From positions 1,297 to 65,296 of the forward strand of contig JBAZMT010000003.1 of NCBI GenBank assembly GCA_041649615.1: DNA of 64,000 nt. The letters are read 5' to 3'. Source of the DNA: Parcubacteria group bacterium. Its GTDB lineage: Bacteria > Patescibacteriota > Minisyncoccia > UBA6257 > Colwellbacteraceae. Below the pieces are notes generated by a model that did not search any database, had not been told where the DNA came from, and saw only the letters and a list, made by a program, of their open reading frames with translations. Position numbers and translations under genes: made by a program. This document shows positions 26,127 through 57,525 of the stretch, in pieces (within the stretch, counting starts at the first letter, position 1; every line of letters begins with the position of its first letter).

Positions 26127-26504
26127 GTGGAAGTCACATCAGTCATCAGCGCGGGTGCCTCCGTTTTGAGCTTCTCGATCATCGTGTTCATTGTGCCGTT
26201 GGTCAAGTACGTCATCTCGAGCAAGGACAAGCAGATTGACGAGCTGAAGACCCTCATCAATCAGGACAGGCAAAGTCGTTGTGAGTCTGATGAGCGCGTG
26301 CGTCAGCTCGAGATGCAGGTTGCTCGCTATGGCATTGAACTCGAAGTGACGAAGGGGATTCAAAGCAAGTTGGATGGGATCTCAGGGCGTGTCGAAGACA
26401 TCGCTCGGGAGATGAGTAGCGTGCAGACGTCCATCGCTTTTTTAGCTCGGGGACGCATCGTAAGCGTCCCTAGGTCGAAGCAGGATTCCATCAAGGAAGG
26501 GTAA
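26127..26504 (+). CDS. single-TM membrane protein with coiled coil (holin or i-spanin-like)
   Basis: GTG at 26127 lies 7 nt after AAGGAG; the ORF-track TTG at 26121 is too close to the RBS. TM segment VLSFSIIVFIVPLV followed by a heptad-like region. Confidence 0.45.
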   Translation: MEVTSVISAGASVLSFSIIVFIVPLVKYVISSKDKQIDELKTLINQDRQSRCESDERVRQLEMQVARYGIELEVTKGIQSKLDGISGRVEDIAREMSSVQTSIAFLARGRIVSVPRSKQDSIKEG

Positions 26505-26508
26505 CGTC

Positions 26509-27342
26509 ATGTCGCTAGATCATCGAACAATTCGATCGCAGGTGTTCGAGGGCTTCAAGCGCAAGTTCGGGCGCGAGGCTACGTTGCAAGAGGCTCAGTT
26601 CCTTCACGCCGTTGGCATGCTCGAAACGTCGTGCGGCACGGGCTGGAAGGGTGTGGGTGCTGGCTCATTCAACATGGGAGCCATCACGGCGGGTCCAGCG
26701 TGGAAGGGCGCGACGTTCGAGTATCGCGACAGCTACCCGGATGAGAATGGCGTCGACCATTGGTACACGACCAAGTTCCGCAAGTACGCTTCGGCCGTCG
26801 AAGGCTGGGAAGACCTTGCGAACATCATGTACGAAGATCGCCCCACCGTGCTCAAGGCTGCAACCGCGGGCGATGCATATGGGGTCAGCTCGGCTCTCTA
26901 CGAGACCAAGTACTACGCGGGCAGGGGCAAGACCGCCAAGGAGCGCATCGCGGGGCATCACGCGGCCGTGGCTCGTTCGCTGATCACCATCTGCAAAGCA
27001 CTCGGCGAGCCGTTGCCTTCGGGCGAAGAGCTACCGCGCAGAACGCTTCGTCGCGGAGATACCGGCGAAGAGGTCAAGGTGCTTCAGCGTTGGTTCGGGT
27101 TGGTTGTCGACGGCATCTTCGGGCCCGTGCTTGATGAGGCCGTGAAGGACTTCCAAACCGATGCCAAGCTCAAGGCCGATGGCATCGTTGGGAACCTCAC
27201 GTGGGATGCGCTGGAAGCCAAGTTCGAAGCCAAGGATGCCGAAACGTCCGACATCCTTGCCGAGCTAATTGGTAGGGCGGGCGAGTTGCAAACCAGGCTC
27301 GGGGAGTTCATTGCGGCTTCCCAAAAGGTGAAACCCGAGTAG
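26509..27342 (+). CDS. endolysin: GH73 N-acetylglucosaminidase domain + C-terminal PG_binding_1 domain
   Basis: LETSCGTGWKG...SFNMGAI...FRKYASAVEGWEDLANIM matches the GH73/FlgJ pattern (ALESGWG..NN.FGIK..FR.Y.S..ES..D). C-terminal LRRGDTGEEVKVLQRWFGLVVDGIFGPVLDEAVKDFQ matches the peptidoglycan-binding domain. Confidence 0.7.
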   Translation: MSLDHRTIRSQVFEGFKRKFGREATLQEAQFLHAVGMLETSCGTGWKGVGAGSFNMGAITAGPAWKGATFEYRDSYPDENGVDHWYTTKFRKYASAVEGWEDLANIMYEDRPTVLKAATAGDAYGVSSALYETKYYAGRGKTAKERIAGHHAAVARSLITICKALGEPLPSGEELPRRTLRRGDTGEEVKVLQRWFGLVVDGIFGPVLDEAVKDFQTDAKLKADGIVGNLTWDALEAKFEAKDAETSDILAELIGRAGELQTRLGEFIAASQKVKPE

Positions 27343-27348
27343 ACTGCA

Positions 27349-27413
27349 AGGGCTACCGAGCGCATCTGTGCAAGCTGATCTCCCCCGTTCGTTTGCTCTA
27401 CGTTCGGTAGCCC
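27349..27413. other. long-loop inverted repeat GGGCTACCGAG ... TTCGGTAGCCC at the start of the 720-bp intergenic hub
   Basis: 11-bp arms separated by ~43 nt, immediately after the endolysin stop codon. Confidence 0.4.
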
Positions 27414-27486
27414 TTACCTAAACCGCTCACCGGGGAGAGGTTTGCATTTGCCCCATCACTGGCACGGTTTGCCCGGGCATGAGTCG

Positions 27487-27498
27487 CTCACCGGTGAG
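27487..27498. promoter_or_regulatory. perfect 12-bp palindrome CTCACCGGTGAG, operator-like site, in the intergenic hub
   Basis: Perfect copies also at 34586-34597 and 48477-48488; near-copies at 27426-27437 (CTCACCGGGGAG) and 27870-27881 (CTCCCCGGTGAG). Confidence 0.45.
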
Positions 27499-28043
27499 CG
27501 GATTTGGGTGCCCATGCATGGGCGGTTTGCACCCCTACTATCGATCTAAATTGCCAAAACTGCCGATACGAAATCGAGCCAAAAAAGGCTGAAGTACGAA
27601 AAAAGCGACAGGGGGAGTTTCCTGTTTTTGCCCGGCCTGTCCATATGAAGGGGGGTAGGGGGGATGAGACAGAGAAATCACAAGCCAGCGAGAGAGGAGA
27701 AGCAACGAGTTCAGCAAACCATCTCTTCGCTCTGTCCGAAGGACAAGTTGATGAGTGGTTGGTTTGAAGGTTCTTCAGTAGATCAAAGAGAGAAGAGAAA
27801 ACGCGCGAGGCAAAGAACGGCAGGGTAAGCCCTCCGAGGAAGGGTTGGTTTCCCTCCCCCAACCAACCTCTCCCCGGTGAGCGAAAGAACGGTAACCGAT
27901 GGCCTCACCTGCGCAAGGGGTGATAGACTCGTCCCTGAGGCTTCGGCCTCTCCTTGCTGTTCCCAAAGACCCCTCGCTGGCCCCGAAAGGTGTTGGCGAG
28001 GGGTCGACTATTTCGTGGGGTGGGTTCAAGTTTTTGGTCGACC

Positions 28044-28053
28044 TATCCACACT
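28044..28053 (+). promoter_or_regulatory. TATCCACACT motif, copy 1, 12 nt upstream of the helicase gene ATG
   Basis: Shares the 10-mer core with the copies at 43311 and 57516. Confidence 0.4.
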
Positions 28054-28065
28054 TCACGGGGAACC

Positions 28066-29595
28066 ATGGTTCGAGTCATTGTCGACAACCGGCTACGCCT
28101 GCAAGAGAGCGACCTGCCTGATGGCATGGTCGAGTCGTTGCGGAGCGACTTCGAGCATTCGAATCCGAGCTATTACAGGCAACGGCAACGGGTGGTCGCA
28201 TGGGGCCGCAAGCGCGGGCGAAAGATCGATCCCAACACCATCAAGGTCAAGGGCGAGCCGCCAATCATCACCTCTTGGCAGAGCGATGGAATGGGGGGCC
28301 TGTCGTTCCCTCGTGGCGGGACCACAATCGTTCGCCAGGCGTTCGAGCGGTTCGGGCTTGGGGAACCGGACTGGGACGACAGGCGCGTCGCTGGCACGCC
28401 TGCAACGGGGATGCAGCTGGCAGGCTACGAGCATCGGGTCCGGCTCTGGGAGCACCAGGACGAGATCGTGGCCGCGGCCATGGAACGGGAGAATTGTCTA
28501 GTCCGGGCGGAAACGGGTTCGGGCAAGACCACGGCCGCCATTGCACTTGCCGTCAAGGTTGGACTGCCCACCATCATCATCGTGTGGTCGGCAAACCTGT
28601 TCGACCAATGGATGGAGCGGCTCGTGAAGGAGCTCGGCGTTGACCCCGACGAGATTGGGCAGATTCGGGGCAGCCGTCGCACGCTCGGGCCCATCACGAT
28701 GGCGATGCAGCAGACGCTCTATGCCAATCCTCGGTTCACGGAGAAGATCGCGCCTCAGTTCGGGTGCGTCATGGCGGACGAGGTTCAACGCTTCGCGGCC
28801 CGCACGTTCAACGACGTGATCGACAAGTTCCCCGCTCGGTACCGCATCGGGTTCAGTGCGGACGAGCACCGCAAGGACAAGAAAGAGTTCCTCATCTACG
28901 ACGCGTTCGGTTCAGTTGCTGCCGACATTGGGAGAGACGAAGTGGTCAAGCGCAAGTTGGTTTTGGACGTCGAAGTGCGAGTGATCCCCACTGAGTTCCG
29001 TGCCGATTGGTACCGCGAGCAGCAGAAGGAGGAGAGTCCAGACTTCAACCGATTGCTCGAAGAGCTCGTCGAAGACAAGGGCCGCAACCTGACGGCGCTT
29101 TCGGTGGCTCGCACCATGATGAGCCTCGGGCATCAGGTGCTGATGCTGACGCATCGGCGCGAGCATGCCGCGATGTTCGTGCGGTCCGAGCTCGAACGCA
29201 AGACTCGCGCTGGACTGTTACTCGGCGGGCCCGAGAACGAAGCCGAGTTCGCCATGACGGTGAAGGCCATTCGTGCGGGGGAATGCCAGTTCGCCGCGGG
29301 GACGTACCAAGCCATCGGGCAAGGGATGGACGTGCCCTCGGTCTCGAGGGGCGTCGCTTGCACTCCGATCGCTTCGAACAAGCAATTCTTCGGGCAGGTC
29401 AGGGGCAGGCTTTGCCGCAAGTGTGACGGTAAGAAAGACGCCGTGCTCTACTACATCTGGGATCAGCACGTGTTCGGGCTCGAACCGATCATGAACTTGC
29501 GTCGATGGAACCGCGTCGTGATGGTTCAGTACGAAGACGAGTGGCTCACGGCCGACGACTTCATCACCGAGTGGAACAAGCGGAGGAAGGGATGA
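28066..29595 (+). CDS. SF2 DNA helicase (DEAD/DEAH-like, ResIII-type)
   Basis: Walker A AETGSGKTT, DEVQ box, and a C-terminal helicase region QAIGQGMDVPS. ATG 12 nt downstream of a TATCCACACT motif. Confidence 0.7.
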   Translation: MVRVIVDNRLRLQESDLPDGMVESLRSDFEHSNPSYYRQRQRVVAWGRKRGRKIDPNTIKVKGEPPIITSWQSDGMGGLSFPRGGTTIVRQAFERFGLGEPDWDDRRVAGTPATGMQLAGYEHRVRLWEHQDEIVAAAMERENCLVRAETGSGKTTAAIALAVKVGLPTIIIVWSANLFDQWMERLVKELGVDPDEIGQIRGSRRTLGPITMAMQQTLYANPRFTEKIAPQFGCVMADEVQRFAARTFNDVIDKFPARYRIGFSADEHRKDKKEFLIYDAFGSVAADIGRDEVVKRKLVLDVEVRVIPTEFRADWYREQQKEESPDFNRLLEELVEDKGRNLTALSVARTMMSLGHQVLMLTHRREHAAMFVRSELERKTRAGLLLGGPENEAEFAMTVKAIRAGECQFAAGTYQAIGQGMDVPSVSRGVACTPIASNKQFFGQVRGRLCRKCDGKKDAVLYYIWDQHVFGLEPIMNLRRWNRVVMVQYEDEWLTADDFITEWNKRRKG

Positions 29596-30662: not shown

Positions 30663-32201
30663 ATGAGCAAAGAGCAAGGCTACGCGACACCAGACTTCAA
30701 GATCACGCACGATGTGCTGAACGAGCAAACGATTCTGGCCGCGGCCATTGTCGATCCCAAGGTTCGAGCAGAGCTCGCGTCGAGGGTACGGGCGGAGCAC
30801 TTCCAAGACACAGACCACGCGCTCGCATGGGCTTCGATCTTGCGTGCTACCGCCCAAGGGCATGACCCGTCGCCAACGGCGATCGTTCAGTTGTCGGGTG
30901 GTAAGCTCGACAAGAAATATCTCGAAGACGTAGTTGCGGCGAACCCAAAGGTACCGCGCGACATTCGGTTCCACATCGACGCGCTCCAATGGGACATGAC
31001 GAGGGCGAAGGCCGTGCAAGGGCCGTTGAGCGAATTGCTCAGGGCGTTGCAGGACCCCGGCATGAGCCAGGAACGCGTTCGGGCGCTCGCCAAGCAGATC
31101 CCAATCTCGTTCCAGGGAAGCTCGTCTAGGACGCACTTGCGCGACGGCGCGAAGCTAGTTGCTGACCATCGTGCCGTCTTGCGGCAACGCATGAACGGCA
31201 TCGGGCTCTATCCAACGGGTATCGAAGGCCTTGACCGTTACCCCCCGAACAGCCTCGACGACAACGGCAACGATGTGAGCGGCCAACCCTTGCTCGTCCC
31301 CGGGCTGGAACCAGGCAAGATCACGACGGTGACGGCAATTTCTGGCGGTGGAAAGAGCACCATCGTTGCCAAGCTAGCGTTGAATCAAGCCAGGATGTGC
31401 GCCGAGCGTGAATGCGGGAAGGTGCTCTACGGCGCTTGGGAGATGTCGCCAGCGGATGTTCTCGAGCTGATGGCATGCATCAGCACGGGCATTTCGAGAA
31501 ACCGTGTGAAGACTGGTCAGATCACGGATGCCGAATGGAAGTTGCTTTGCAACACGATGGACGCGATTGCCCAATGGGTGAAGTTCGTCGACATGCCATT
31601 CCACAAGGAACGAGGCGTTCGACACACTCATGACGAAGTGCTCGACGTGATCCATGGTTACATCGCCGACAGTGGGGCGAGCATTGCAATCTTCGATCTG
31701 TGGCGACGCGCCTTCAGACGCATGAAGGACGAGAGCGATGAGCAGGAAGCGCTCTACCGTCAGCAGGCGATAGCCGAAGAGACGAACTGCCATTGCTTGC
31801 TCGTTCAGCAGCAACGCTTGAAAGACATTGAAACCAGACAGAACCCAATGCCGACACGCGAAGGCGTGAAGGGTTCGAGCGCATGGGTCGACGTGAGCGA
31901 TACGATGATCGGCGTTTACTTGCCGGGGCTCATGAAGCGGGTGAGCCGCAACGTCATTCAGTTGCTCGTGCTCAAGCAACGATACGGTCGTTGGCCATTG
32001 ACGATCGAATACCAATGGGACGGTGATATCGTTCATCTGCATAGCGGTCAGCTCGTGTGGGACGTTGCGATCGGTGACGAGAGCAAGGTTCAAAGCGGGC
32101 CGAGTGGGCACAATGGCAAGAAGAAGAAAGACCTGTCGAAGGCGGTCAACGTCGTGCCAGCGTCAAAGCTTCAGAAGGGGAAAGGATCGAAGGCAAAGTG
32201 A
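30663..32201 (+). CDS. dnaB: DnaB-like replicative DNA helicase
   Basis: DnaB-like N-terminal domain (EQTILAAAIVDP); RecA-fold Walker A GLEPGKITTVTAISGGGKST; length 512 aa. Confidence 0.75.
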   Translation: MSKEQGYATPDFKITHDVLNEQTILAAAIVDPKVRAELASRVRAEHFQDTDHALAWASILRATAQGHDPSPTAIVQLSGGKLDKKYLEDVVAANPKVPRDIRFHIDALQWDMTRAKAVQGPLSELLRALQDPGMSQERVRALAKQIPISFQGSSSRTHLRDGAKLVADHRAVLRQRMNGIGLYPTGIEGLDRYPPNSLDDNGNDVSGQPLLVPGLEPGKITTVTAISGGGKSTIVAKLALNQARMCAERECGKVLYGAWEMSPADVLELMACISTGISRNRVKTGQITDAEWKLLCNTMDAIAQWVKFVDMPFHKERGVRHTHDEVLDVIHGYIADSGASIAIFDLWRRAFRRMKDESDEQEALYRQQAIAEETNCHCLLVQQQRLKDIETRQNPMPTREGVKGSSAWVDVSDTMIGVYLPGLMKRVSRNVIQLLVLKQRYGRWPLTIEYQWDGDIVHLHSGQLVWDVAIGDESKVQSGPSGHNGKKKKDLSKAVNVVPASKLQKGKGSKAK

Positions 32202-33253
32202 GCGCGCAGAATCGACAGAGCGCCGATGTGCCAAGGTTGCTTGATGCGTTGGGTATTCGGTACCGAACGCACGGGCACGAGCTCTGGGCGCCATGTCCGC
32301 ATCCAGACCACAAGGAGACGCGCCCGAGTTGGAGCATCTCCCACAACCCACAGAGCCCGGGTAATGGTTCACACCATTGCTTCGGGTGCGCATTCAACGG
32401 GGGGCCCGTAGATCTGGTGATGGCCGTGCGAGGCCTGAGCATGGGTGGCTCGCGCGCATGGATCACGGATAACGGGCTTTGGCTCAAAGGGTCATTGCCG
32501 CTCGCGGTATCGTTCGAGATCACGAAGCTCTTGTCGAACCGTCTTCGCATCCCGAGCAAGTTGCTGAGCGGCCCGCTCAATGCTTGGGTGACGCCCGTTC
32601 GAAAGTACGCCTTGCAACGCGGGCTCACCGACGCGCAATGCCTGCGATGGGACATCTGTTACGCGATCGACGGCGCCATGGGTGGTCGCATCGTGTTCCC
32701 CGTCAAGGACGAGAACGAAGAGTGGCTCGGTTGGCACGCTCGCACGTTCTGCAAACAGGACAAGCGGTACAAGAACGCCAGCGAGGCCGACGGCTACGAC
32801 CCCGGGGCGATCTTTGGGATGCGCCATTGGCCTCCCTACGATGCACGGGCAGGCCTTTCCCTAGTGCTTACCGAGGGCGCGCTGGATGCGCTAGCGTGCG
32901 AACGTGCGGGTGCTAGGTTTCTTGCGGCTATTGGAGGCAGTGAGCCGCACGCAAGGCAACTCCTGAAGCTCCAACAATGGGACCGGATACTCGTTGCCAC
33001 AGATGGAGACCATGCCGGTGACAGAATGTTCGAGACGTTGCGGGGACTACTTGGGAGGAAAGTCGATATTCGAAGGGTGGAGATCCCTCGAGATTGCGAT
33101 GCCGCGGAGCTCACTCGAGATCAGTTGAGAGAGTTGCTATGGCAAGCCGAAGGCTCAGGAAGAAGCCCAAACGAAGCAAGAAGTACAAGCGGAAGAGTGG
33201 TCCGCCGAAGAAGAGTGGTTACCCTGCAAGGAAACCAGCTCACCCAGAAATAA
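32198..33253 (+). CDS. dnaG: DnaG-like DNA primase (CHC2 zinc finger + TOPRIM)
   Basis: CPHPDHKETRPSW...HCFGCAFNG zinc-binding motif; TOPRIM acidic residues (LVLTEGALDALA ... LVATDGDHAGD). Confidence 0.75.
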   Translation: MSAQNRQSADVPRLLDALGIRYRTHGHELWAPCPHPDHKETRPSWSISHNPQSPGNGSHHCFGCAFNGGPVDLVMAVRGLSMGGSRAWITDNGLWLKGSLPLAVSFEITKLLSNRLRIPSKLLSGPLNAWVTPVRKYALQRGLTDAQCLRWDICYAIDGAMGGRIVFPVKDENEEWLGWHARTFCKQDKRYKNASEADGYDPGAIFGMRHWPPYDARAGLSLVLTEGALDALACERAGARFLAAIGGSEPHARQLLKLQQWDRILVATDGDHAGDRMFETLRGLLGRKVDIRRVEIPRDCDAAELTRDQLRELLWQAEGSGRSPNEARSTSGRVVRRRRVVTLQGNQLTQK

Positions 33254-33848: not shown

Positions 33849-33875
33849 TTGGCGCGCTAGCGCATGGCATGCGAA
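33849..33875 (+). promoter_or_regulatory. TTGGCGCGCTAGCGCATGGCATGCGA conserved intergenic element, copy 1 (contains the 10-bp palindrome GCGCTAGCGC)
   Basis: 15-mer GCGCGCTAGCGCATG identical to the copy at 35828; upstream of the gene starting at 33926. Confidence 0.5.
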
Positions 33876-33925
33876 GGTTGATCCGTCGAAGGGAACAACC
33901 CACGGCAAGAAAGGTAGAATCCAGA

Positions 33926-34582
33926 ATGACCGACCTATCCAACACTAGCGCCAATGCAACGACCACCGAGACCGCCAAAGCCGCCAAGGCCAAGATCGAC
34001 AAGAAGCAAGCCACGGCCGCGCTCAGCAACCTGACGCAGGCGAAGCGGGTCATCGAAGGCAAGGCAGTGACCAAGAAAGCCCAGAAGCGCGAGGCAGTGA
34101 TTGCTCGACGCGAAGAGGAGAAGAAGGCTGCCCTGGTATTGCTCGACACGGGATCGACGAAGAAGTGGTCAGCGCGGTTTGCCCTAGTGCGCGCCGTCAC
34201 CGCGATGAAGATGGGTGCCAGCGCGGAAGAGTTGCGCGGTTGCAAAGCCCTCATGACCGTGACCGATTGGCCCGCGCTGGAACAACCCGTGCGTGACTAC
34301 GCGGTAGCCGTTCAGGCGGATGCGGACAAGATTGCGAGCATCCTTTGCACGAAGCCCGCGGCCCCTGCCCCTGCCCCTGCCCCTACCCCTGCCCCTGCCC
34401 CGGTTGCAGTGGCCCCCAAGGCGGAGCCCAAGCCCGAGCCCAAGGCGGAGTCGGTCAAGCCCCCGACCCCTATTCGCCCGCCCATGACGGCGGTCAAGCC
34501 GCTCGGTACCAAGCCGGCAACGGCTGCTCCCGCGGCAAAGCCTGCCAAGCCCCCCGCAAAGCCGGTCAGTCGCGCCTCCTAA
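33926..34582 (+). CDS. hypothetical protein with (PA)n / KP-rich C-terminus
   Basis: Start placed downstream of the conserved GCGCGCTAGCGCATG promoter-like motif. PAAPAPAPAPTPAPAP low-complexity region. Confidence 0.5.
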   Translation: MTDLSNTSANATTTETAKAAKAKIDKKQATAALSNLTQAKRVIEGKAVTKKAQKREAVIARREEEKKAALVLLDTGSTKKWSARFALVRAVTAMKMGASAEELRGCKALMTVTDWPALEQPVRDYAVAVQADADKIASILCTKPAAPAPAPAPTPAPAPVAVAPKAEPKPEPKAESVKPPTPIRPPMTAVKPLGTKPATAAPAAKPAKPPAKPVSRAS

Positions 34583-34585
34583 ACG

Positions 34586-34597
34586 CTCACCGGTGAG
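34586..34597. promoter_or_regulatory. palindrome CTCACCGGTGAG, copy placed immediately between a stop codon and a terminator hairpin
   Basis: Exact 12-mer, extended as CTCACCGGTGAGAGG as at 27426 and 48477. Confidence 0.45.
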
Positions 34598-34602
34598 AGG
34601 TT

Positions 34603-34639
34603 CCCCGTGGTCTAGCGATGGGCCACGGGGTTCTTCTTG
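34603..34639 (+). terminator. rho-independent terminator-like hairpin (CCCCGTGG ... CCACGGGG + TTCTTCTTG)
   Basis: 8-bp GC-rich stem, 12-nt loop, T-rich tail; downstream of the stop at 34582. Confidence 0.5.
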
Positions 34640-34655
34640 AAGAAAGGACAGTTCG

Positions 34656-35759
34656 ATGCTCAACGAAACAGCGACAGGTAAGTTCAGTTCGGCGCGCAAG
34701 GCAGGAGAGGCGTTCTTAGGTGTGGAGGTGGCTTGGAACATGGGGGAGCAGGCGACGGACCTGGCGATTCCCCGTGGACAGTTCGAAGCGTTGTTCATGG
34801 CTGTCACCAACCGGAAGGAGTTCTTCAAGAAGATCACGGCCGAGGACAGCCTCACCGTCGCCGCGAAGCTCGGCTGGAGCCTGCAACTGAAGATCGATCC
34901 CCGCACGGTCACAGTCAAGCAACTGAGCAAGCCCGATAAGGACACACCCCTAGCGTTCGGCGTTTACTACCGGGTCAGCCTTGAAGGCGAGCGCGACAAG
35001 TGGGAGCTCGGGGCACGGGTTCGCGTGCAAGACGGGCAGGTCGTTGTCTGCCCGCCAATGGACGAGACGGAGTTCCCGAGCGAGTCGGCGAAGCGTTGGG
35101 GTGAAGCGATGGCAACCTACGCCAACGAGTGCTTCGGTACCGCGTTCAACTACCACATCAGTCACGCGTTGCTCGATCTCGGTGACGAGCTTGGATGGGT
35201 CAGTCGCCGAGTGAGCGGCGGAGTGTACTTTCTACCGGGCGACTCCGGTGAGAAGTTCACTCAGGTGCTCGACGGCCTTGCCGAGTTGACCAACGAGAAG
35301 CCGGTGAAGTTCGAAGGATCGGCGATCCCTCAGTACGCTGACCCGCGAACGCTCTCGACGTGGAAGCGCCGTACTGAGCAGACGTTCGAAGGCGAGCTCG
35401 ACCAACTGAACGCGCGTCTCGCCGACATGGTTTCGAGCGACAAGACACGCGAGTCGACGTTCGATACCAAGGTCTTCGAATGCGCCGAGCTCCTTCTGAA
35501 GGCGGACCGTTACGCGAACATCCTTCAGGAGCGGCTTGGGCCGCTCAAGGAGAAGATTGACGAAGTGAGGGCCAAGTTCGCCGACGCGAAAGCTGAGTTG
35601 CAGGCGAGCAAGGGCAAGGCCGACAAGGCGTTCAACGACGTCGCCAAAGCCGCCAAGGGCGCCAAGGCTGCCCCCACAGTGGTCGCGCAGCCAGCCAAGC
35701 CGGCGGGTCCCGTAAAGGTCCGCACCAAAGCCGAGCTCATGGCCCTTTTCGCGATCTGA
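34656..35759 (+). CDS. hypothetical protein
   Basis: 367-aa ORF, ends before the terminator hairpin at 35782. Confidence 0.55.
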   Translation: MLNETATGKFSSARKAGEAFLGVEVAWNMGEQATDLAIPRGQFEALFMAVTNRKEFFKKITAEDSLTVAAKLGWSLQLKIDPRTVTVKQLSKPDKDTPLAFGVYYRVSLEGERDKWELGARVRVQDGQVVVCPPMDETEFPSESAKRWGEAMATYANECFGTAFNYHISHALLDLGDELGWVSRRVSGGVYFLPGDSGEKFTQVLDGLAELTNEKPVKFEGSAIPQYADPRTLSTWKRRTEQTFEGELDQLNARLADMVSSDKTRESTFDTKVFECAELLLKADRYANILQERLGPLKEKIDEVRAKFADAKAELQASKGKADKAFNDVAKAAKGAKAAPTVVAQPAKPAGPVKVRTKAELMALFAI

Positions 35760-35781
35760 CGGCCCCAAGCCCAAGCCTAAA

Positions 35782-35825
35782 ACGGGCCAGCGTGCGACCT
35801 CCGCGCTGGCCCGTTGATGATTTCT
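35782..35825 (+). terminator. rho-independent terminator-like hairpin (ACGGGCCAGCG ... CGCTGGCCCGT + TGATGATTTCTATT)
   Basis: 11-bp perfect stem after the stop at 35759. Confidence 0.55.
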
Positions 35826-35850
35826 ATTGCGCGCTAGCGCATGCCGTGCG
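35826..35850 (+). promoter_or_regulatory. TTGCGCGCTAGCGCATGCCGTGCGA conserved intergenic element, copy 2
   Basis: Directly after the terminator at 35782-35825 and about 50 nt upstream of the MoxR ATPase ATG. Confidence 0.5.
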
Positions 35851-35898
35851 ACTGTGATTTCGTTGTTTGGTTGCCCCAACCGGGGCAGGGAGATCAGC

Positions 35899-37161
35899 AT
35901 GGAAGAGATCGGTAGAGTCGGTCGAAGGCGTCGCCGCCAAGAGACCAAGGAAGCCAACCCCATCGTCGCCCCAGAAGAAGCGGGTGTTGTCGACGGAGGG
36001 ATCGTTGGCGAGTTGCCAGTCGTGACGCGGTTGAACAATGCCGCAAAGCAACTGAACGGGTTCTTCGCTGAACGCGAAGCGGCTGTTCGATGCATGATGA
36101 TCGCGTTGCTGACGGGAATGAACTACTTGCTCGTCGGGCCGCGAGGCACTGCGAAGACGGTGCTCAGCAAGGCGATGATGAAGCACGTTGACGGGTCGAA
36201 GCACTTTTCGACGCTGCTCGGTAGCTTCTCGACGTTGAACGATCTGATTGGTCGAATCGACTTGGCCGCCCTGCAACGCGGTGAGGAGAAGCGGAAGATC
36301 GAGGGCAAGTTGCTTGACTGCGACACCGCGTTCATTGACGAGGCCTTGAAGGGTAGCGATGGCGTTCTGAACAGCCTGCTCGGGCTGCTCAGTGACGAGC
36401 GCGACTTCGACGGCGTTCGGGCGCCCCTTTGGAGCGTTGGAAGCGCGACGAACTGGCCAGAAGTGAACCGCCGTACTGACCGCATCGCCGCGCTCTACGA
36501 CCGGTTCCATATCAAGGTTCCGGTGACCGCGGTGAAGACGCGAGCGGGCCGAGTGCAAGTGCTCAGGGCGAGCCGAGTCGTTGGCACCTACACGCCGACC
36601 GAGGACTCGATTGTGACCCTCGACGAGCTACGTGATGCCGCGCTGGAAGTAGCGAATATCCAGATCGACGCTTCAATCGAAGACCTACTTTGCAGCATCC
36701 AAGAACGTTGCATCAAGGATGAGATCGACATCAGCGATAGAAAGCTCGGCCAGTGGCAACGAGGCATTCAGGCGAATGCATGGTTGTCGGGGCGAACCGA
36801 AGTGTCCGTCGAAGACATGGACATCTTGCCCTTCATGGCATGGGACAACGAGAAGGACATTGCCAAGGCGACAGCGATCATCAGTAGTTGTGACCTTGAG
36901 CTTGCGCAAGGGCTCATCAAGCGGGTTGACGAAGCGCGGCAAGCCTACGCGAACATCAAGCGCACGGGTTTGACAGCGGCTAACGCGAGTCAGGTGCTCG
37001 AGAAGATCATCAGAACCGCGGAAAGCGTCTCGGGCGACATGAAGCGCTTCAAGCTTCGCGAGTCCAGCAGGAACGACGTCGCTCGTGCGGTGAAGAGCCT
37101 GCAACGTGACTTCGAAGAGCTCTACTCGAAGTTCCAACCGGCATTAGATGGGGAAGGGTGA
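35899..37161 (+). CDS. MoxR-family AAA+ ATPase (CobS/RavA-like)
   Basis: Walker A LLVGPRGTAKT, Walker B CDTAFIDEA; AAA_3/AAA_5-like. Start placed downstream of the conserved promoter-like motif at 35826. Confidence 0.7.
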   Translation: MEEIGRVGRRRRRQETKEANPIVAPEEAGVVDGGIVGELPVVTRLNNAAKQLNGFFAEREAAVRCMMIALLTGMNYLLVGPRGTAKTVLSKAMMKHVDGSKHFSTLLGSFSTLNDLIGRIDLAALQRGEEKRKIEGKLLDCDTAFIDEALKGSDGVLNSLLGLLSDERDFDGVRAPLWSVGSATNWPEVNRRTDRIAALYDRFHIKVPVTAVKTRAGRVQVLRASRVVGTYTPTEDSIVTLDELRDAALEVANIQIDASIEDLLCSIQERCIKDEIDISDRKLGQWQRGIQANAWLSGRTEVSVEDMDILPFMAWDNEKDIAKATAIISSCDLELAQGLIKRVDEARQAYANIKRTGLTAANASQVLEKIIRTAESVSGDMKRFKLRESSRNDVARAVKSLQRDFEELYSKFQPALDGEG

Positions 37162-38500
37162 TCCAATGTTCGACTCGATGTTCAGCTACGATGTTCTTTC
37201 GTTTGACGAAGCCGTTCAACGTCATGGCATGATCCGTGATTGCCTTGCGAAGTTGACGAAGGGGCATACGCCCAATCTACCTAACGACAAGGCGAAGCAG
37301 ATTGTTGGATACCTGCAAGACGCGTGGAACGAATGCATTGGGGCGGGCTCGCCCGACAGTGCAATCGCAGCGGCTCTTCGAGGTATCGTGCCGCTCGACT
37401 ACGTTCCACTTCTCCGCATGCGGAGCGGCATCCCGGCGTCGTACCTGATTGCACGGCTCACGGACGTGCTCATTGACGCTGTTCTGAAGGGCGTAGACAT
37501 CGACGACGACATGCTCTTGCGCGGGCTAGTTGCGGAAGCGTTCAAGGCCTTCGAAGAGCGTCGCAAGAGTGCCGACACGTTGGAGGAAGGGTTCGGCTTC
37601 GATCGGTCTGATGCATGGGCGCAGATGCGCCAAGTGGAAGACCGTCAGGGCGAGGTTTCGCATCTGATGAAGCAGATCGCAAACCTCGCCGGGCGTATGT
37701 ATAAGAGCTTCGAGTACAATGCGATCCCGAGCAAGTGCAAGGACCCGCAAGAAGTCGAAGGTATCGAAACGGGCGGTGACCTCGACAGAATGCTCGACGA
37801 CGAGAAGGCGAGCATCGGTATTGATCCCGACGTTGCCGTTCGAGTTAGCGAAGACCGCGCCAATCAGTTCCGCATGGCAGGCGAGTCAACGAAGAGCCGC
37901 GGCCCGCTCGTAGTTGCAGTTGATGAGTCTGGTTCGATGCACGACCATCGTGAGATCTGGGCCAAGGCCTGCTCAGTGGCGTTGATTCGAGTTGCCCTGC
38001 AAGAGGGGCGAACCGTGCGCATGGTGCACTTCTCGACGGTGACGGATGTTCACGATGTGCGCCCGAACGAGCCGAACGACATGCTCCTCGTCGCCGAAAG
38101 CCATTGCGGTGGAGGCACCGATATCGATGTCGCGATGGAAGTGGCGTTGGAGCAGATCGGAAACCTAGAGAAGGACGGCAAAGAAGGCGCCGACATCGTG
38201 TTCATCACCGACGGCTTGGACAGCTACTCGAAGAGCCACTTCGACAAGATGGTTCAGATGGGCGTTCAGCTTTGGACCGTCGCCATCGACGTGGACATCA
38301 AGGCCGTGTCGGAGCAGCAGAAGCGCAACCGCGGAGCAGCGGGTGCCAGCGGATGGCTCTACGACTACGCTCGGGCGTACGTCCACATCAGCGACTCGAC
38401 TATTCGCGGCAACGGGGCAGGAGCCATCAACGCGGCCCTGCAATTGCGCGAAGCCGCGCTGGACAACGTGACGCGTGAAGAAGAGGCCAGTCGTGGCTGA
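37148..38500 (+). CDS. von Willebrand factor A (VWA) domain protein, partner of the MoxR ATPase (CobT/ViaA-like)
   Basis: C-terminal VWA with MIDAS motif VVAVDESGSM ... TDGLDS. Confidence 0.65.
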   Translation: MGKGDPMFDSMFSYDVLSFDEAVQRHGMIRDCLAKLTKGHTPNLPNDKAKQIVGYLQDAWNECIGAGSPDSAIAAALRGIVPLDYVPLLRMRSGIPASYLIARLTDVLIDAVLKGVDIDDDMLLRGLVAEAFKAFEERRKSADTLEEGFGFDRSDAWAQMRQVEDRQGEVSHLMKQIANLAGRMYKSFEYNAIPSKCKDPQEVEGIETGGDLDRMLDDEKASIGIDPDVAVRVSEDRANQFRMAGESTKSRGPLVVAVDESGSMHDHREIWAKACSVALIRVALQEGRTVRMVHFSTVTDVHDVRPNEPNDMLLVAESHCGGGTDIDVAMEVALEQIGNLEKDGKEGADIVFITDGLDSYSKSHFDKMVQMGVQLWTVAIDVDIKAVSEQQKRNRGAAGASGWLYDYARAYVHISDSTIRGNGAGAINAALQLREAALDNVTREEEASRG

Positions 38501-40623: not shown

Positions 40624-43227
40624 ATGAGGCGTTTAGTAACCAACGGGCAGAAGGAACGTCAGGTGCGGATCGATGCAATTGTCGATCTCCCAAACCAAAC
40701 AACAATCGCACCTGATGTTCCTCCTGTCCGTGGGTTGCTGAACGTCGCTCAGAACAAGGACAACATCATCATCGTTGAGCGCAATGGCGATGAGGTCATT
40801 GTGCGAGAACGGGCCGCTGAATTCTCGTGCTTCATTAGGAACGACATCGACGATGAAACGAAGCGGAAGATTCGAAACCATCGAGCCGTCAAAGGCATGC
40901 TCGAAGAGGGCGATTGGATTCGGATCTTGTGGAAGAGTAGCTTCGAAAGAGAAGATCTCTGCAAGAAGCTCGAAGCGGACGGCGTGCGAACATACGAAGG
41001 AGATGTCGGCGCCGTCCGCCGCTTTTTGACAGATCACAAGATCCCGCACGTTACGCCGAGGCTTTGCTACTACGACATTGAAACGGACAGTCGCGTGCCC
41101 GTGCGGCTTGCAGCCGAAGGCAAAGCTCGAATCCTATGTTGGTCTGTTATCGGTGCTGACGGCAAGGTGACCGTCGGCGTGCTTGATGATGACACTGACA
41201 CGGCCGAACGAGCGTTGCTGCAACGGCTCATCAAGACGCTTGAACAATACGATCAAGTCGCTTCGTGGAACGGGGACAACTTCGACTTCCCCGCAACGAA
41301 GGCGCGATGCGCCCAACGACGCATCTCAGTGAACTTCGACCGATGGCTATGGCTCGACCAGATGGATCTCTTCATCCGGATGAACACCATGGCCGCGGAG
41401 TCCGGAGAAGAGAAGGCGAGCTACTCGTTGCAGGCCATCTCGATGGCATTGCTCGGCGTTGGCAAGGACGACATCGACGCGAGCAGGACCTACGAGTATT
41501 GGGCAGCCGGTGGTGAAGAGCGCCAGAAGCTCGTTCGATACAACGTCACCGACGTGAAGCGACAGCGCGGTATCGAAGAGAAGACGGGCTACATCGCGCT
41601 CCTTCAGACGTTGGCGGAAACGACCAACGTGTTCCCCGACTCGAGGGGCATGAACCCAACGATCCAGGCCGAAGGCTTCTTGCTTCGTCTTGGCGCTGAT
41701 AGGAACTATCGGTTCCCAAGCAACTTCGAACGCGGGCACTCGGACAGGTTCAAGGGCGCCTTCGTGATGGAGCCGCAAGGAAGCGGCATCATCAAGAACG
41801 TTCACGTCGGCGACTTCGCGTCTCTGTACCCGAGCATCATCGTCACGTGGAACATGAGCCCAGAGACGCTGATTGCGGATGAAGCATTGGCGCAAGCGAG
41901 CGCGCTGGACGAACCGTATTGCACGGCCCCAATCACGGGCACGTGCTTCCTAACCAGAGAAGAAGGCATTCTTCCGCACGCCGTCAAAGAGGTGATGCGG
42001 TTGCGGAAGTATTGGAACGATCTGAAGGCGTCGTATCCGCCAGGTTCAGACGAATGGGTGAGCGCGAATCGCAAGGCGACGGCATACAAGATCGCAGCGA
42101 ACTCGTTCTACGGTGTCATCGGTAGCCCGATGAGCCGCTTCTTCAGTCGAGATGTAGCTGAAGCGGTGACGCAGGCAGGAGCATGGCTCATTCAAGAGAC
42201 GATGGCGGCCGCCGAAGCGCGGACGATGCATTCGATCTATGGAGACACCGATTCGCTCTTCATTGGTAACTGTACTCGCACGCAATTTGAGGTCTTCGTC
42301 GAATGGTGCAATCACGACTTCTACCCGGTGAAGCTCAAGGACCTTGGTTGCAAGGAGAATCTGATCAAGCTTGCCTACGAGAAGGAATTCGAACGCATCA
42401 TCTTCATCTCAGCGAAGAAGTATGTTGGGCGCTACGTTCACTTCAAAGGCACGATGGCAGACGCGTCGAGCAAGCCCGAAGTCAAAGGCCTCGAGTACAA
42501 GCGCGGCGACAGCATCAGGGTCGCGCGTAACTTCCAAGCCGAGGTGATCGATCTACTGGTAGGCATGGAGAACGGTGGTCACGAGGACACCGAAACGTTC
42601 GATGAGGTCATTGCACGTTGGCAGGCTTCGATCTTGAACGACCCGTTGACGATAGACGACATCTCGATGGCGAAGCGCTTGAACAAGCCGCTCAACGAGT
42701 ATGCCCGCAAGCGCACGAAGGACGGCGGTTGGGCGAAGCAACTTCCGCACATCGAACTCGCACGCAAGATGATTGAACGCGGTGAGGACGTGCGCGAAGG
42801 CACGAAGGTCACGTACTTCGTCTATGACGCCAGTCACAAGGGTGACGTCGAATACCGGCTCAAGGAAGAGTGGGACGGTACCTTCGATCGGTACGAATGC
42901 TGGGAGAAGCTTACTTGGCCACCGACGCAACGGTTGCTCGAAGCGGCGTTCCCCGGGCACCCTTGGGACGACCAATACGGGTCGGTCCGCCCCAAGACCC
43001 CACGAGCTCCGCGGGCTACCAAGGCCAAGGCCCCACCGAAGGGCGCCTACACCCAAGACATGACGGAGGAGTTTTCCCAGGCTCAGCAGGAGGTCGCCAG
43101 CGGCCTAGGCAAGCGAGGCACGGCCAAGGCCCCACCCGTGCGGGGCTCCGCGCTGGACCCCTCGCCTATGACGACGCCAGCCGGGCCAGGTCGGAGACGC
43201 CGTGTCTCGTCGGCTGCTTCCTCCTGA
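40624..43227 (+). CDS. family B DNA polymerase with 3'-5' proofreading exonuclease
   Basis: Exo I YYDIETD, Exo II WNGDNFDFP, Exo III YNVTDV; PolB motif A DFASLYPSI and motif C YGDTDSLFI. Confidence 0.85.
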   Translation: MRRLVTNGQKERQVRIDAIVDLPNQTTIAPDVPPVRGLLNVAQNKDNIIIVERNGDEVIVRERAAEFSCFIRNDIDDETKRKIRNHRAVKGMLEEGDWIRILWKSSFEREDLCKKLEADGVRTYEGDVGAVRRFLTDHKIPHVTPRLCYYDIETDSRVPVRLAAEGKARILCWSVIGADGKVTVGVLDDDTDTAERALLQRLIKTLEQYDQVASWNGDNFDFPATKARCAQRRISVNFDRWLWLDQMDLFIRMNTMAAESGEEKASYSLQAISMALLGVGKDDIDASRTYEYWAAGGEERQKLVRYNVTDVKRQRGIEEKTGYIALLQTLAETTNVFPDSRGMNPTIQAEGFLLRLGADRNYRFPSNFERGHSDRFKGAFVMEPQGSGIIKNVHVGDFASLYPSIIVTWNMSPETLIADEALAQASALDEPYCTAPITGTCFLTREEGILPHAVKEVMRLRKYWNDLKASYPPGSDEWVSANRKATAYKIAANSFYGVIGSPMSRFFSRDVAEAVTQAGAWLIQETMAAAEARTMHSIYGDTDSLFIGNCTRTQFEVFVEWCNHDFYPVKLKDLGCKENLIKLAYEKEFERIIFISAKKYVGRYVHFKGTMADASSKPEVKGLEYKRGDSIRVARNFQAEVIDLLVGMENGGHEDTETFDEVIARWQASILNDPLTIDDISMAKRLNKPLNEYARKRTKDGGWAKQLPHIELARKMIERGEDVREGTKVTYFVYDASHKGDVEYRLKEEWDGTFDRYECWEKLTWPPTQRLLEAAFPGHPWDDQYGSVRPKTPRAPRATKAKAPPKGAYTQDMTEEFSQAQQEVASGLGKRGTAKAPPVRGSALDPSPMTTPAGPGRRRRVSSAASS

Positions 43228-43300
43228 CCCTTGGGGGATCACCCCCTACGCCCAACGGGTTGACGCCCGGGCAAAAGGTCTGGCTTGGGGTTTCGAGAAA

Positions 43301-43320
43301 TTGGGTGAGATATCCACACT
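43301..43320 (+). promoter_or_regulatory. TTGGGTGAGATATCCACACT conserved promoter-like element, copy 2
   Basis: 20/21 nt identical to the copy at 57506; 19 nt upstream of the ATG at 43340. Confidence 0.5.
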
Positions 43321-53431: not shown

Positions 53432-54352
53432 ATGGCCAGAAAGACCAAGACAGCAAACCCGGCAACGCCCAAGGCAGAGTTCCATAAGATCCACGAGCAA
53501 CTACTTGGGATGAAGATTCCAATTGGGATGCTCGTATTGGACCCGGAGAACGCACGGGATCACAACGAGCAGAACATCGACTCGATCAAGACATCGCTCG
53601 ATGAGTTCGGTCAGCGCAAGTGCATCGTCGTCAAGAAGAGCGACATGACCATCACTGCCGGCAACGGTACGGTGACGGCTGCGAAGCAACTTGGATGGAC
53701 GCACATCGCGGCTCTCATCACCGACGATGACGAGGTAACCGCGGCCGCGTATGCACTCGCCGACAATCGAACCGGTGAGCTCGCGACGTGGAACTACGAT
53801 CGCCTCGTCAAAACGATGTCGAGCTTGCACAAGAACGGGTTCGAGCTCTTGAAGCTAGGTTGGGACGACACCGAGACGCGCATGATGATGCAGCTCGACT
53901 CGTCGGCGTTCAAGGACATGCAACGGCTCAACGTCGATGCGACGCTGAGCAATAGCGTTGTTCGAGAACTCGGTGAGGGGAAGGATTCGAATTGCGACAA
54001 GAACGAGCAGTGGTTCTACTGTGAGTTCTACAAGGACGAAGAGACCTTCAAGCGCCTCAGCGACAAGCTCCGACCGTATCTGCGCACGGAGCACGAGATC
54101 TCGGGCGAGTTCTTCGCACAGATGGTTGATGCGTTCATCGCAGACCATGCGTCTGACTTGCCTCCACCCGTTGCGAATCCCGAACCAGAACCGAAGCCTG
54201 AGCCCAAAGCTAAGGCCGACCCCGCGCTGGACCAGAAGGTGAAGCCGAAGAAGCCAAGCAACGTCGAGAAGAGCGTGAGCGAGCCGGTGAAGACGAAGCG
54301 TAAGTGCACGAAGAAAGGTTGCAAGGACAAGGGTAAGGAGAAGGCTCGATGA
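53432..54352 (+). CDS. ParB-like nuclease-domain protein (DpdB-like?)
   Basis: ParB N-terminal domain pattern LVLDPENARDHNE...IVVKKSDMTITAGNGTVTAAKQLGW; basic, Cys-containing C-terminus. Confidence 0.6.
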   Translation: MARKTKTANPATPKAEFHKIHEQLLGMKIPIGMLVLDPENARDHNEQNIDSIKTSLDEFGQRKCIVVKKSDMTITAGNGTVTAAKQLGWTHIAALITDDDEVTAAAYALADNRTGELATWNYDRLVKTMSSLHKNGFELLKLGWDDTETRMMMQLDSSAFKDMQRLNVDATLSNSVVRELGEGKDSNCDKNEQWFYCEFYKDEETFKRLSDKLRPYLRTEHEISGEFFAQMVDAFIADHASDLPPPVANPEPEPKPEPKAKADPALDQKVKPKKPSNVEKSVSEPVKTKRKCTKKGCKDKGKEKAR

Positions 54353-57403: not shown

Positions 57404-57454
57404 AGACCGCTCTGGCACGTTGCAGATCGAGACCCCCAACCTGCCCCCCTTGCG

Positions 57455-57512
57455 ATTGGTCGCCCCAAAAAAGCGACCAGAGGGCAGGGAGGGGGTTTCG
57501 CTTTTTTGGGGG
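57455..57512. terminator. large A6/T6-containing inverted repeat CCCCAAAAAAGCG ... CGCTTTTTTGGGG (13-bp arms, ~23-nt spacer); bidirectional terminator-like or protein-binding site
   Basis: Arms at 57463-57475 and 57499-57511. An alternative small hairpin GGTCGC/GCGACC sits at 57458-57478. Lies directly upstream of promoter-like motif copy 3. Confidence 0.4.
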
Positions 57513-57525
57513 AGATATCCACACT
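57506..57525 (+). promoter_or_regulatory. TTGGGGGAGATATCCACACT conserved promoter-like element, copy 3
   Basis: Immediately downstream of the large hairpin at 57463-57511; 40 nt upstream of the ATG at 57566. Confidence 0.5.

Follow-up and report, generated by a model that had tools for sequence, protein, structure and literature searches.

Large structured RNAs of phages and prophages, such as the Rfam families GOLLD and ROOL, have been found by comparative genomics. In lambda, the distant operators OL and OR act by looping. G clusters near a promoter start R-loops, with ColE1 and the mitochondrial CSBII as precedents. The T4 origins oriF and oriG act through an R-loop made from a phage-specific promoter, and for an origin of this type the DNA downstream of the promoter must include an A+T-rich unwinding element (PMC3016281). 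Here, we describe a 723-nt gap between an endolysin gene and a helicase gene, at positions 27343-28065 of a stretch of 64,000 nucleotides of contig JBAZMT010000003.1 (assembly GCA_041649615.1), referred to below as the window. It lies where the late genes (tail and lysis) meet the replication genes and is a composite control region. Judged from its sequence and that of its relatives, it on balance probably holds an undescribed structured RNA gene of ~370 nt on the + strand, with a promoter of its own, set in a region of terminator, operator and promoter elements.

Through homologues of the helicase, the element was found in 11 other metagenomic phage contigs (L001, L006-L008, L010-L013 and L177-L179). 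Their helicases are from 83% (L001, the closest) down to 49% identical to that of the window. A long non-coding stretch of 425-939 nt is kept at the same junction in 10 of the relatives. In L013 the contig end cuts the stretch after 554 nt, and L178, whose contig starts just before the RNA, has only the 430 nt upstream of the helicase. The element lies on the helicase strand, directly upstream of the helicase, in 11 of the 12 contigs; in L179 the stretch adjoins the endolysin, and three small genes stand between the 3' domain of the RNA and the helicase. The features of the candidate RNA, with positions in the window, are as follows.

27650-28016, + strand: candidate non-coding RNA gene of ~367 nt, with ordered blocks in 12 contigs; the 3' end is uncertain, 28006-28020
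27650-27663, + strand: 5' G-block GGGGGGTAGGGGGG, exact in 8 of the 12 contigs
27685-27690, + strand: CCAGCG, in the purine-rich 5' stretch; CCAGC is invariant in the alignments
27734-27755, + strand: hairpin Ha (GUCC-GAA-GGAC), then GAUGAG
27802-27810, + strand: CGCGCGAGG block, similar to CGCGCGA(A/G)G in most members as read by eye in the alignments
27843-27868, no strand assigned: hairpin GGTTGGTT/AACCAACC, preceding the third copy of a palindrome
27917-27930, + strand: conserved block GGGGTGATAGACTC, which is GGUGAUAGACUC in clade A, GGUGUAGACU in clade B and GGGUAUACUCG in L179
27937-27950, + strand: hairpin Hb, GAGGC-UUCG-GCCUC
27948-27963, + strand: 3' pyrimidine block CTCTCCTTGCTGTTCC, with an anti-Shine-Dalgarno-like CUCCUU
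27968-28005, + strand: hairpin Ht, with a GC-rich stem of 14 bp that includes tandem U-G/G-U pairs
28006-28020, + strand: tail GACTATTTCGTGGGG, with a conserved (C)AC(C)UAU, a short U-run and then a G-run

The order of the conserved blocks, which include CCAGCG, a hairpin with AUGAG, CGCGCGAAG, GGTGATAGACTC and CTCTCCTTGCTGTTCC followed by a GC hairpin, is kept in all members, and their spacing is kept as well. The four contigs that lack the exact G-block have GGGGGTAGGGGG, GGGGGTCAGGGGG, GGGGGGGGTCAGGGGG and GGGGGGTCGGGGGG in its place. The first 70 nt of the RNA are 61-77% purine, while the locus mean is 52-57% (standard deviation 6-7). The centre of the RNA is variable, ~100-200 nt long, and contains the CGCGCGA(A/G)G block. 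At the other end, the pyrimidine block (given as CUCUCCUUGCUGUUCC in the block order) is exact as CCTTGCTGTTC in 10 of 12 contigs.

The hairpins change in sequence and stay paired. A hairpin is found just upstream of (G/C)AUGAG in 10 contigs, with the motif at +91 to +105 from the G-block in eight of these, and the Ha stems read GUCC/GGAC, UGCC/GGCA, CUGC/GCAG, GCGGCC/GGCCGC or UCCC/GGGA. All 11 sequences that were folded have a hairpin at the position of Hb; in L007 and L178, GAGCU/GGCUC replaces GAGGC/GCCUC, a swap from G-C to C-G. Ht has a GC stem of 12-17 bp across the relatives, and its arms differ in sequence while the pairing stays. Its folding energy is -23.3 to -32.1 kcal/mol (z -3.1 to -6.0) in all 12 contigs, and the - strand folds more weakly in nine of them because of the tandem U-G/G-U pairs. 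Further, a covariance model of the 3' part (R1) finds all 12 members at E <= 1e-13, with no convincing match beyond them. The + strand of the whole gap folds at -293 kcal/mol with z = -4.2, based on 20 shuffles only; the upstream 305 nt give z = -3.4 and the RNA part -2.2.

In addition, a closing helix between the two ends of the RNA is predicted by the folding programs. RNAalifold pairs the G-block with the pyrimidine block by 13 pairs, of which seven are G-U, and the duplex reaches -12.7 to -21.9 kcal/mol in 11 of the 12 contigs. In several members the G-run of the tail is also able to pair with CC(C) just past the pyrimidine block. Several other pairings were tried and rejected. CCAGCG and the purine run pair with the pyrimidine block no better than shuffled controls do; read by eye, a local sequence immediately ahead of Ha (CGCU or CGUU) is more often the partner of CCAGCG. 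The G-block pairs with the tail behind Ht only weakly in L008 and L010 and not at all in L011 and L012. A G-quadruplex was likewise dropped as a feature of all members, as the G6-UA-G6 of the window is without four tracts. Finally, the complement of the pyrimidine block matches ribosome-binding sites at 23578 and 44141, but a duplex scan for targets in trans gives many sites of similar energy, and the matches are probably a mere likeness to the Shine-Dalgarno sequence.

The second line of evidence is a two-part motif, GGTTTC and T(A/G)TCCA separated by exactly 16 nt. It has four copies in 64 kb, at 27617, 28023, 43289 and 57494, all on the + strand, all intergenic and all upstream of + strand genes. 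The two copies in the gap are these.

27617-27645, + strand: P_nc, GTTTCC, 16 nt and TGTCCATA; the RNA would start at ~27648-27650
28022-28053, + strand: P_hel, GGGTTC, 16 nt and TATCCACACT, ending 13 nt ahead of the helicase ATG (28066)

The TATCCACACT element at 28044-28053 is thus the second half of the motif. Each relative has one copy before the G-block and one before the helicase, and both carry the variants of that genome: GTGCAC...GCATGTAT at both sites of L008 and L010, GTGCAC...GGCAAAC in L177, GTCCAC...CATG(T/G)(A/T)T in L011 and GTGCCC...CATCTA in L012. In each full-length member from which the motif was extracted, P_hel lies downstream of Ht and ahead of the helicase start. That each genome shares its variants between the two sites is the strongest sign that one factor uses both copies; most simply they would be a promoter class of the replication-period genes. 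The copy at 43289-43320 lies just after the family B polymerase gene (40624-43227) and ends 21 nt before an ATG at 43342, which suggests that the listed GTG start of the next open reading frame (ORF), 43202, is too far upstream.

At the other end of the RNA, Ht is a probable non-canonical terminator or recognition hairpin, to judge from its sequence. A GC-rich stem as in intrinsic terminators is found in 12 of 12 contigs, and a consensus scan flags part of Ht. Behind Ht lies a spacer, conserved as ACC/GAC, after which most members have 3-6 U; no U-run is found in L008, L010 and L177.

Several observations weigh against an independent RNA of this kind. The U-run behind the spacer is short and interrupted, besides being absent from some relatives. 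A scan for the sigma-70 consensus (TTGACA, 16-18 nt, TATAAT) finds no site in 26500-29000, and both promoter and terminator are inferred from sequence only. The column-wise covariation of Ht is not significant: in the model-based alignment, 69.5% of the cells are paired against 68.0% in shuffled alignments, and the covariation score of 0.247, against 0.200 when shuffled, is reached by 21 of 500 shuffles. The two strands of the closing helix are both invariant, and clade-A folding offers them other partners; in L179 the pyrimidine block has diverged and the duplex with the G-block is lost (-4.6 kcal/mol). Finally, the family is known from 12 contigs only.

It should be kept in mind how the covariation was calculated. 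In the MAFFT seed the lower stem of Ht is out of register, and column-wise covariation in both the MAFFT and the model-based alignments is limited by register errors. In our reading the weak covariation of Ht is due to these errors. What supports Ht, Ha and Hb is therefore the folding of every sequence on its own, not formal covariation.

The family looks confined to one sub-lineage. Motif search, nhmmer and the covariance model do not find the element in 26 farther helicase loci from IMG/VR (32-46% identity) or in the L300 lineage; the 27th locus of the IMG/VR search is the L001 contig itself and was left out of the 26. A pattern scan of viral and genome collections with GGGGGGTAGGGGGG..CCAGCG returned one already known IMG/VR contig and unrelated G-rich elements. 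When viral contigs were scanned with TCTCCTTGCTGTTC, only the known IMG/VR contig and unrelated G-rich elements were seen among the matches listed. A literature search on the invariant blocks gave nothing relevant.

One of the G-rich elements is widespread. CCCCCC-(TTTGAAAAA or TGACAAG)-GGGGGG-TA-GGGGGG-(ATT or GTTG) recurs in metagenome-assembled genomes of many bacterial phyla, at loci L044-L149 (e.g. L054, L071, L076, L088, L093 and L116; also L051, L057, L069, L086 and L087), and some genomes hold it in several copies. Only its G6-TA-G6 core is common with the phage RNA. Rfam has no match for this element in the 20 loci scanned.

The most distant member, L179 (1222-2190), has the 5' and 3' domains of the RNA ~900 nt apart. 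The intervening DNA, which may be an insertion into the variable centre of the RNA, contains an 87-aa ORF with an (AK)n repeat and a pair of 39-nt hairpin units that are nearly identical.

The other elements of the gap, most of them upstream of the RNA, are listed here.

27348-27415, + strand: hairpin H1, 6 nt past the endolysin stop, with a 15-bp stem and a 38-nt loop that has a conserved UGUGCA
27424-27442, no strand assigned: palindrome copy 1, CGCTCACCGGGGAGAGGTT, operator-like and conserved in L001 and L006
27485-27500, no strand assigned: palindrome copy 2, CGCTCACCGGTGAGCG, a perfect 16-mer
27510-27523, no strand assigned: 14-bp perfect palindrome GCCCATGCATGGGC; L001 has TTCCTTTTAGGGCC here
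27576-27606, + strand: A-rich block GAGCCAAAAAAGGCTGAAGTACGAAAAAAG, a small dyad and A-tracts ~45-75 nt upstream of the inferred RNA start
27608-27625, no strand assigned: small hairpin ACAGGGGGAGTTTCCTGT with A-run and T-run flanks, terminator-like both ways, overlapping the first promoter element
27865-27883, no strand assigned: palindrome copy 3, AACCTCTCCCCGGTGAGCG, within the RNA; found in L001, L006, L007 and L013

H1, the CTCACCGGTGAG palindrome family, the A-rich tract and TATCCACACT are kept in the relatives. The arms of H1 (27348-27362 and 27401-27415) are 93% complementary. In L001 they show two compensatory changes, A-U to G-C and C-G to U-A, as well as G-U pairs that are valid on the + strand only, and L006, L007, L008, L010 and L177 have a long stem of quite different sequence at this position. 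By its sequence, H1 likely serves the late (lysis) transcript as an element for its 3' end, its stability or its termination.

The palindromes share the consensus AACCnCTCACCGGTGAGnGGTT and lie in the gap at ~-220, ~-160 and ~+220 relative to the inferred RNA start. CTCACCGG(G/T)GAG occurs at 27426, 27487 and 27870, with exact copies outside the region at 34586 and 48477. When up to two mismatches are allowed there are 12 matches against 3.95 expected, and no shuffle reached 12. In L006, copy 2 is CTATCACCGGTGATAG, with both halves changed symmetrically. The palindrome of clade B is another one, TCCCAT(N2)ATGGGA, and each locus has a single copy, which lies upstream of the RNA. As far as sequence can tell, these features would suit an operator to which a dimeric phage protein binds, perhaps with looping. 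The palindromes could equally act as RNA hairpins; this was considered because the centre bases are not always symmetric and because L178 has the 3' arm of an ordinary 9-bp hairpin in place of copy 3. The copy at 34586, CGCTCACCGGTGAGAGG, gives a further reason, since it stands between a stop codon and a terminator. It comes right after the stop of gene 33869-34582 and ahead of a canonical terminator, CCCCGTGG...CCACGGGG with a T-run (34584-34640), and in L001 (11230) a palindrome lies directly past a stop codon at the corresponding place.

Copies 1 and 3 form a perfect 19-nt inverted repeat (27424-27442 and 27865-27883, 422 nt apart). A miniature transposable element was considered and rejected: the 19-nt arms are copies of the palindrome family, which also occur singly at 34586 and 48477, and the unit between them keeps its place and order in relatives and was found nowhere else by nhmmer.

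GGTTTGC is found at 27439, 27466 and 27524. L001, at 83% helicase identity, keeps only the copy attached to palindrome 1 and has also lost the 14-bp palindrome; from this comparison, that palindrome and the two other GGTTTGC repeats are probably incidental. The A-rich block is conserved in L001, L006, L013 and L007, and clade B has a dyad GATTCATGCTGAATC with an A-tract at its position. It is a candidate for an upstream promoter or activator site. A terminator scan flags the small hairpin at 27608-27625 on the - strand. The A-run, hairpin and T-run, with ~45 nt of similar sequence (AAAAAAGCGAC..GGGGG(A)GTTTC..TTTTTG), are common to 27596-27647 and 57454-57500 (57440-57525 region); at both sites the promoter-like motif stands within or just after them, as a terminator-promoter module.

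A preliminary description of the stretch, made from its letters, had already named many of these elements. It gave the same boundaries of the gap and called it the only long non-coding stretch, and rightly so: the endolysin stop and the helicase ATG agree, and the other gaps are at most ~240 nt. The long-loop inverted repeat that it reported corresponds to the arms of H1 (27348-27362 and 27401-27415), and the palindrome family with its third copy (27426, 27487 and 27870) and the GGTTGGTT/AACCAACC hairpin (27843-27868) are likewise present. The A-rich tract and TATCCACACT are both present and kept in relatives. The 14-bp palindrome exists as well, at 27510-27523 and not at 27507-27520 as was written; the three GGTTTGC direct repeats are there, but two of them are not kept in L001. 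The G-block and the 19-nt inverted repeat of copies 1 and 3 had been overlooked. That description had also said that poor conservation in relatives, or a missed small protein gene, would speak against it; the region is conserved in relatives, and indels and a six-frame comparison leave no conserved frame.

The gap begins after the endolysin stop (27342) and ends before the helicase ATG (28066). The endolysin ORF, 26509-27342, has a PG_binding_1 domain and matches endolysin PHROGs. The helicase is of the SF2 type (ResIII/DEAD), with XPB/RAD25 as its nearest solved relatives, and downstream of it lie DnaB (30663-32201) and a primase (32198-33253). Nearly all genes of the window are on the + strand. 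They include contractile-tail baseplate genes, a family B polymerase, and RecA, SbcCD-like, ParB-like (53432-54352) and MoxR/VWA genes. The next-longest gaps are ~240 and ~220 nt, and 27343-28065 is the longest without a credible ORF. A scan of the window found no tRNA or tmRNA genes. In the replication module, a DUF6744 protein, a MoxR-type AAA+ ATPase and a VWA (CoxE-like) protein are encoded consecutively at 34656-38500, an unusual set for a phage.

BLASTN against GenBank phages gives no DNA-level match to the region, and the nearest helicase match in the same phages, by tblastn, has 28% identity; there is therefore no cultured relative from which to borrow knowledge. Some helicases of the relatives (P0014, P0039 and P0042) are ~765 aa long with intein and HNH domains (PF14890, PF13392), so the helicase gene next to the locus has been invaded by inteins in some lineages.

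The RNA belongs to no described family that we could find. The Rfam scan proposed in the preliminary description was run: the Rfam 15 families give no match at or above the gathering threshold in the window or in the 11 related loci, and a scan of 27200-28200 with relaxed filters gives only two matches at chance level (E 1.7 and 2), both to eukaryotic families. GAUGAG and CUGAUGAG had prompted a search for a hammerhead ribozyme. This candidate was rejected: C3 is U in most members (UUGAUGAG), no stem II with GAAA at the right spacing is seen by eye, and there is no Rfam hammerhead match even at E <= 5. Among the functions first suggested for the region, a small non-coding RNA locus is supported as regards the RNA, given the promoter-like motif, the ordered blocks, the hairpins and the + strand, but at ~370 nt it is not small. 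A regulatory switch is supported in the sense of a regulatory region, with two copies of the promoter-like motif and a family of operator-like palindromes.

We propose that the locus could work as follows. The late transcript would end in H1 and in the A-run, hairpin and T-run at 27608-27625, and the palindromes would bind a dimeric phage regulator that controls P_nc. P_nc would fire together with the replication-period promoters, and the RNA and the replication genes would be expressed at the same time. The RNA would start at or next to GGGGGGUAGGGGGG, and transcription would stop at Ht. The 5' G-block would pair with the 3' block CUCUCCUUGCUGUU and close the molecule, and in this resting fold the G-block would cover the CUCCUU block for as long as the stem stays closed. 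The RNA may then be a stable regulator, its invariant blocks being the contact surfaces for a protein or a second RNA. P_hel would separately start the replication operon of helicase, DnaB and primase.

Other explanations have to be weighed against this one. The RNA might be the primer of an R-loop origin: the P_nc transcript would stay annealed through its G cluster and the purine-rich first 60-70 nt and be processed to a primer for the family B polymerase, while the structured remainder controls hybrid formation, as in ColE1 RNA II. A near-invariant G cluster directly behind the promoter would suit this well, and the stretch that follows, at 61-77% purine, is among the most purine-rich 70-nt windows of most loci. 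Helicase, DnaB and primase also follow directly behind the site, the phage has a T4-like set (family B polymerase, RecA and SbcCD-like), and the R-loops made from a phage-specific promoter at T4 oriF and oriG are a precedent (PMC3016281). However, the DNA downstream of the promoter is 48-69% GC and G- and purine-rich, not A+T-rich. With the unwinding element absent and a G cluster at the start of the downstream DNA, an origin of the oriF/oriG type proper is not supported. Further, simple priming needs no conserved hairpins, no 3' block and no strong end hairpin 300 nt downstream; the canonical four-tract G-quadruplex motif occurs only in clade B and L007 and not in the window, and the cumulative GC skew has no turning point here. 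UvsW, the R-loop-unwinding helicase of T4, is absent among the helicase matches, and so the helicase gives no link to R-loop unwinding. On the whole we regard such an origin as unlikely.

A bolder proposal, which we regard as unlikely, is a new kind of phage origin whose structured pre-primer RNA is anchored by an R-loop at the invariant G6-TA-G6, maybe aided by a G-quadruplex, and passes a primer to the family B polymerase. As an equal alternative, the locus would encode a large structured RNA of a new class that acts with a protein. If the G6-TA-G6 pre-primer origin were true, it would be the counterpart in bacterial viruses of the mitochondrial CSBII and ColE1 RNA II.

It is similarly improbable that no free RNA exists and that the blocks are a long structured 5' leader of the replication operon, in which Ht is a regulated attenuator of transcription from P_nc into the helicase. 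The position of the element, on the helicase strand and directly upstream in 11 of 12 contigs, is what a leader would have; read-through past Ht is likely since the U-run is weak or missing, and the G-block has alternative partners on both sides of Ht. But a second promoter-like copy lies between Ht and the helicase in every full-length member extracted, and would make the replication operon independent of read-through. In L179 three small genes separate the 3' domain from the helicase, and no alternative pairing competes with the arms of Ht in all members.

Conservation at the DNA level only would mean that the blocks and dyads are binding sites of phage proteins, for origin binding, partition, packaging or transcription, and that there is no functional RNA. 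We give this a small chance. The palindromes are indeed operator-like, with symmetric changes in L006, a clade-specific core and copies that flank P_nc at ~-220, -160 and +220; the G-block and the pyrimidine block do not vary, which is common for protein sites, and TATCCACA matches eight of the nine positions of a DnaA box. On the other side, the arms of the hairpins vary yet stay paired, and their G-U pairs work on one strand only. The iterons of the preliminary description are not conserved either: one copy of the three GGTTTGC is kept in L001, and besides the palindromes there is no conserved repeat family, so that an iteron origin was rejected. The TATCCACA sites are single, and clade B has GCATGTAT or GGCAAAC there. 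The window has three 8/9 matches to the DnaA box (TTATCCACA) against 5.4 expected by chance, and one of them is in the gap; without a cluster of boxes a DnaA-dependent origin was rejected too. The origin that had been suggested, of iteron or DnaA type, is thereby not supported. Nothing points to the suggested pac/cos region: no terminase domain is found among the larger ORFs scanned.

That a small protein gene was missed is hardly credible: a 54-aa ORF (27664-27828), preceded by a G-rich stretch, and a 124-aa reverse ORF (27488-27862) are present in the window, but L001 lacks the ATG of the former and has indels of 1, 8 and 15 nt that break every frame, the candidate small ORFs of the gap have no Pfam or PHROG match, and six-frame tblastn among close relatives gives matches in all frames and on both strands over the same nucleotides, never one frame across clades. 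By its sequence, then, the gap is non-coding.

Large structured RNAs with many blocks are rare, and those that have been found mostly proved to have unusual functions or assemblies. Returning to the independent RNA gene that we favour, its anatomy is marked by a putative promoter class of its own, a 5' end of 14 nt that is nearly invariant and a constant position next to the replication genes. This makes it a concrete target for mapping of transcripts, of the switch from late to replication expression and of the start of replication. The lineage consists of uncultured contractile-tailed phages, whose relatives have genomes of ~90-100 kb and no cultured relative above 28% helicase identity. The lineage-specific promoter motif and the operator-like palindrome can be used for annotating these genomes.

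Compared with known systems, the locus shares features with several. With T4 oriF and oriG it has in common a phage-specific promoter (here putative), a possible priming transcript, a family B polymerase, a DnaB-type helicase, a primase and a RecA-type recombinase. However, T4 needs ~100 bp with a promoter and an A+T-rich element and no conserved RNA structure, while here there is a ~370-nt unit of hairpins. ColE1 RNA II and CSBII offer a structured or G-run transcript and a possible persistent hybrid near the promoter, and G6-TA-G6 resembles the G-run-A-G-run of CSBII; here, in contrast, there is no antisense partner or Rom-like system, and the G-run is at the very 5' end and not near the priming site.

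The lambda OL/OR system is similar in that a promoter has copies of one palindrome on both sides, a few hundred bp away, and the genome has more copies elsewhere, but no repressor is identified here and one copy of the palindrome is inside the candidate RNA. The pRNA of phi29 (RF00044) is also a structured RNA encoded by a phage, with paired 5' and 3' ends (here predicted) and an early promoter at a module boundary. It differs in that the present RNA has no Rfam match, is twice as long, belongs to a contractile-tail phage and shows no link to packaging genes.

GOLLD and ROOL are no match in sequence or structure, and the present RNA sits at a lysis/replication junction in a window without tRNA genes; to our knowledge its invariant G6-UA-G6 start has no counterpart. 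Like them, however, it extends over several hundred nt with many separate conserved blocks and hairpins, is carried by phages and has a function as obscure as theirs was when they were first described. It belongs to none of the large phage-associated structured RNAs, and it resembles them in kind.

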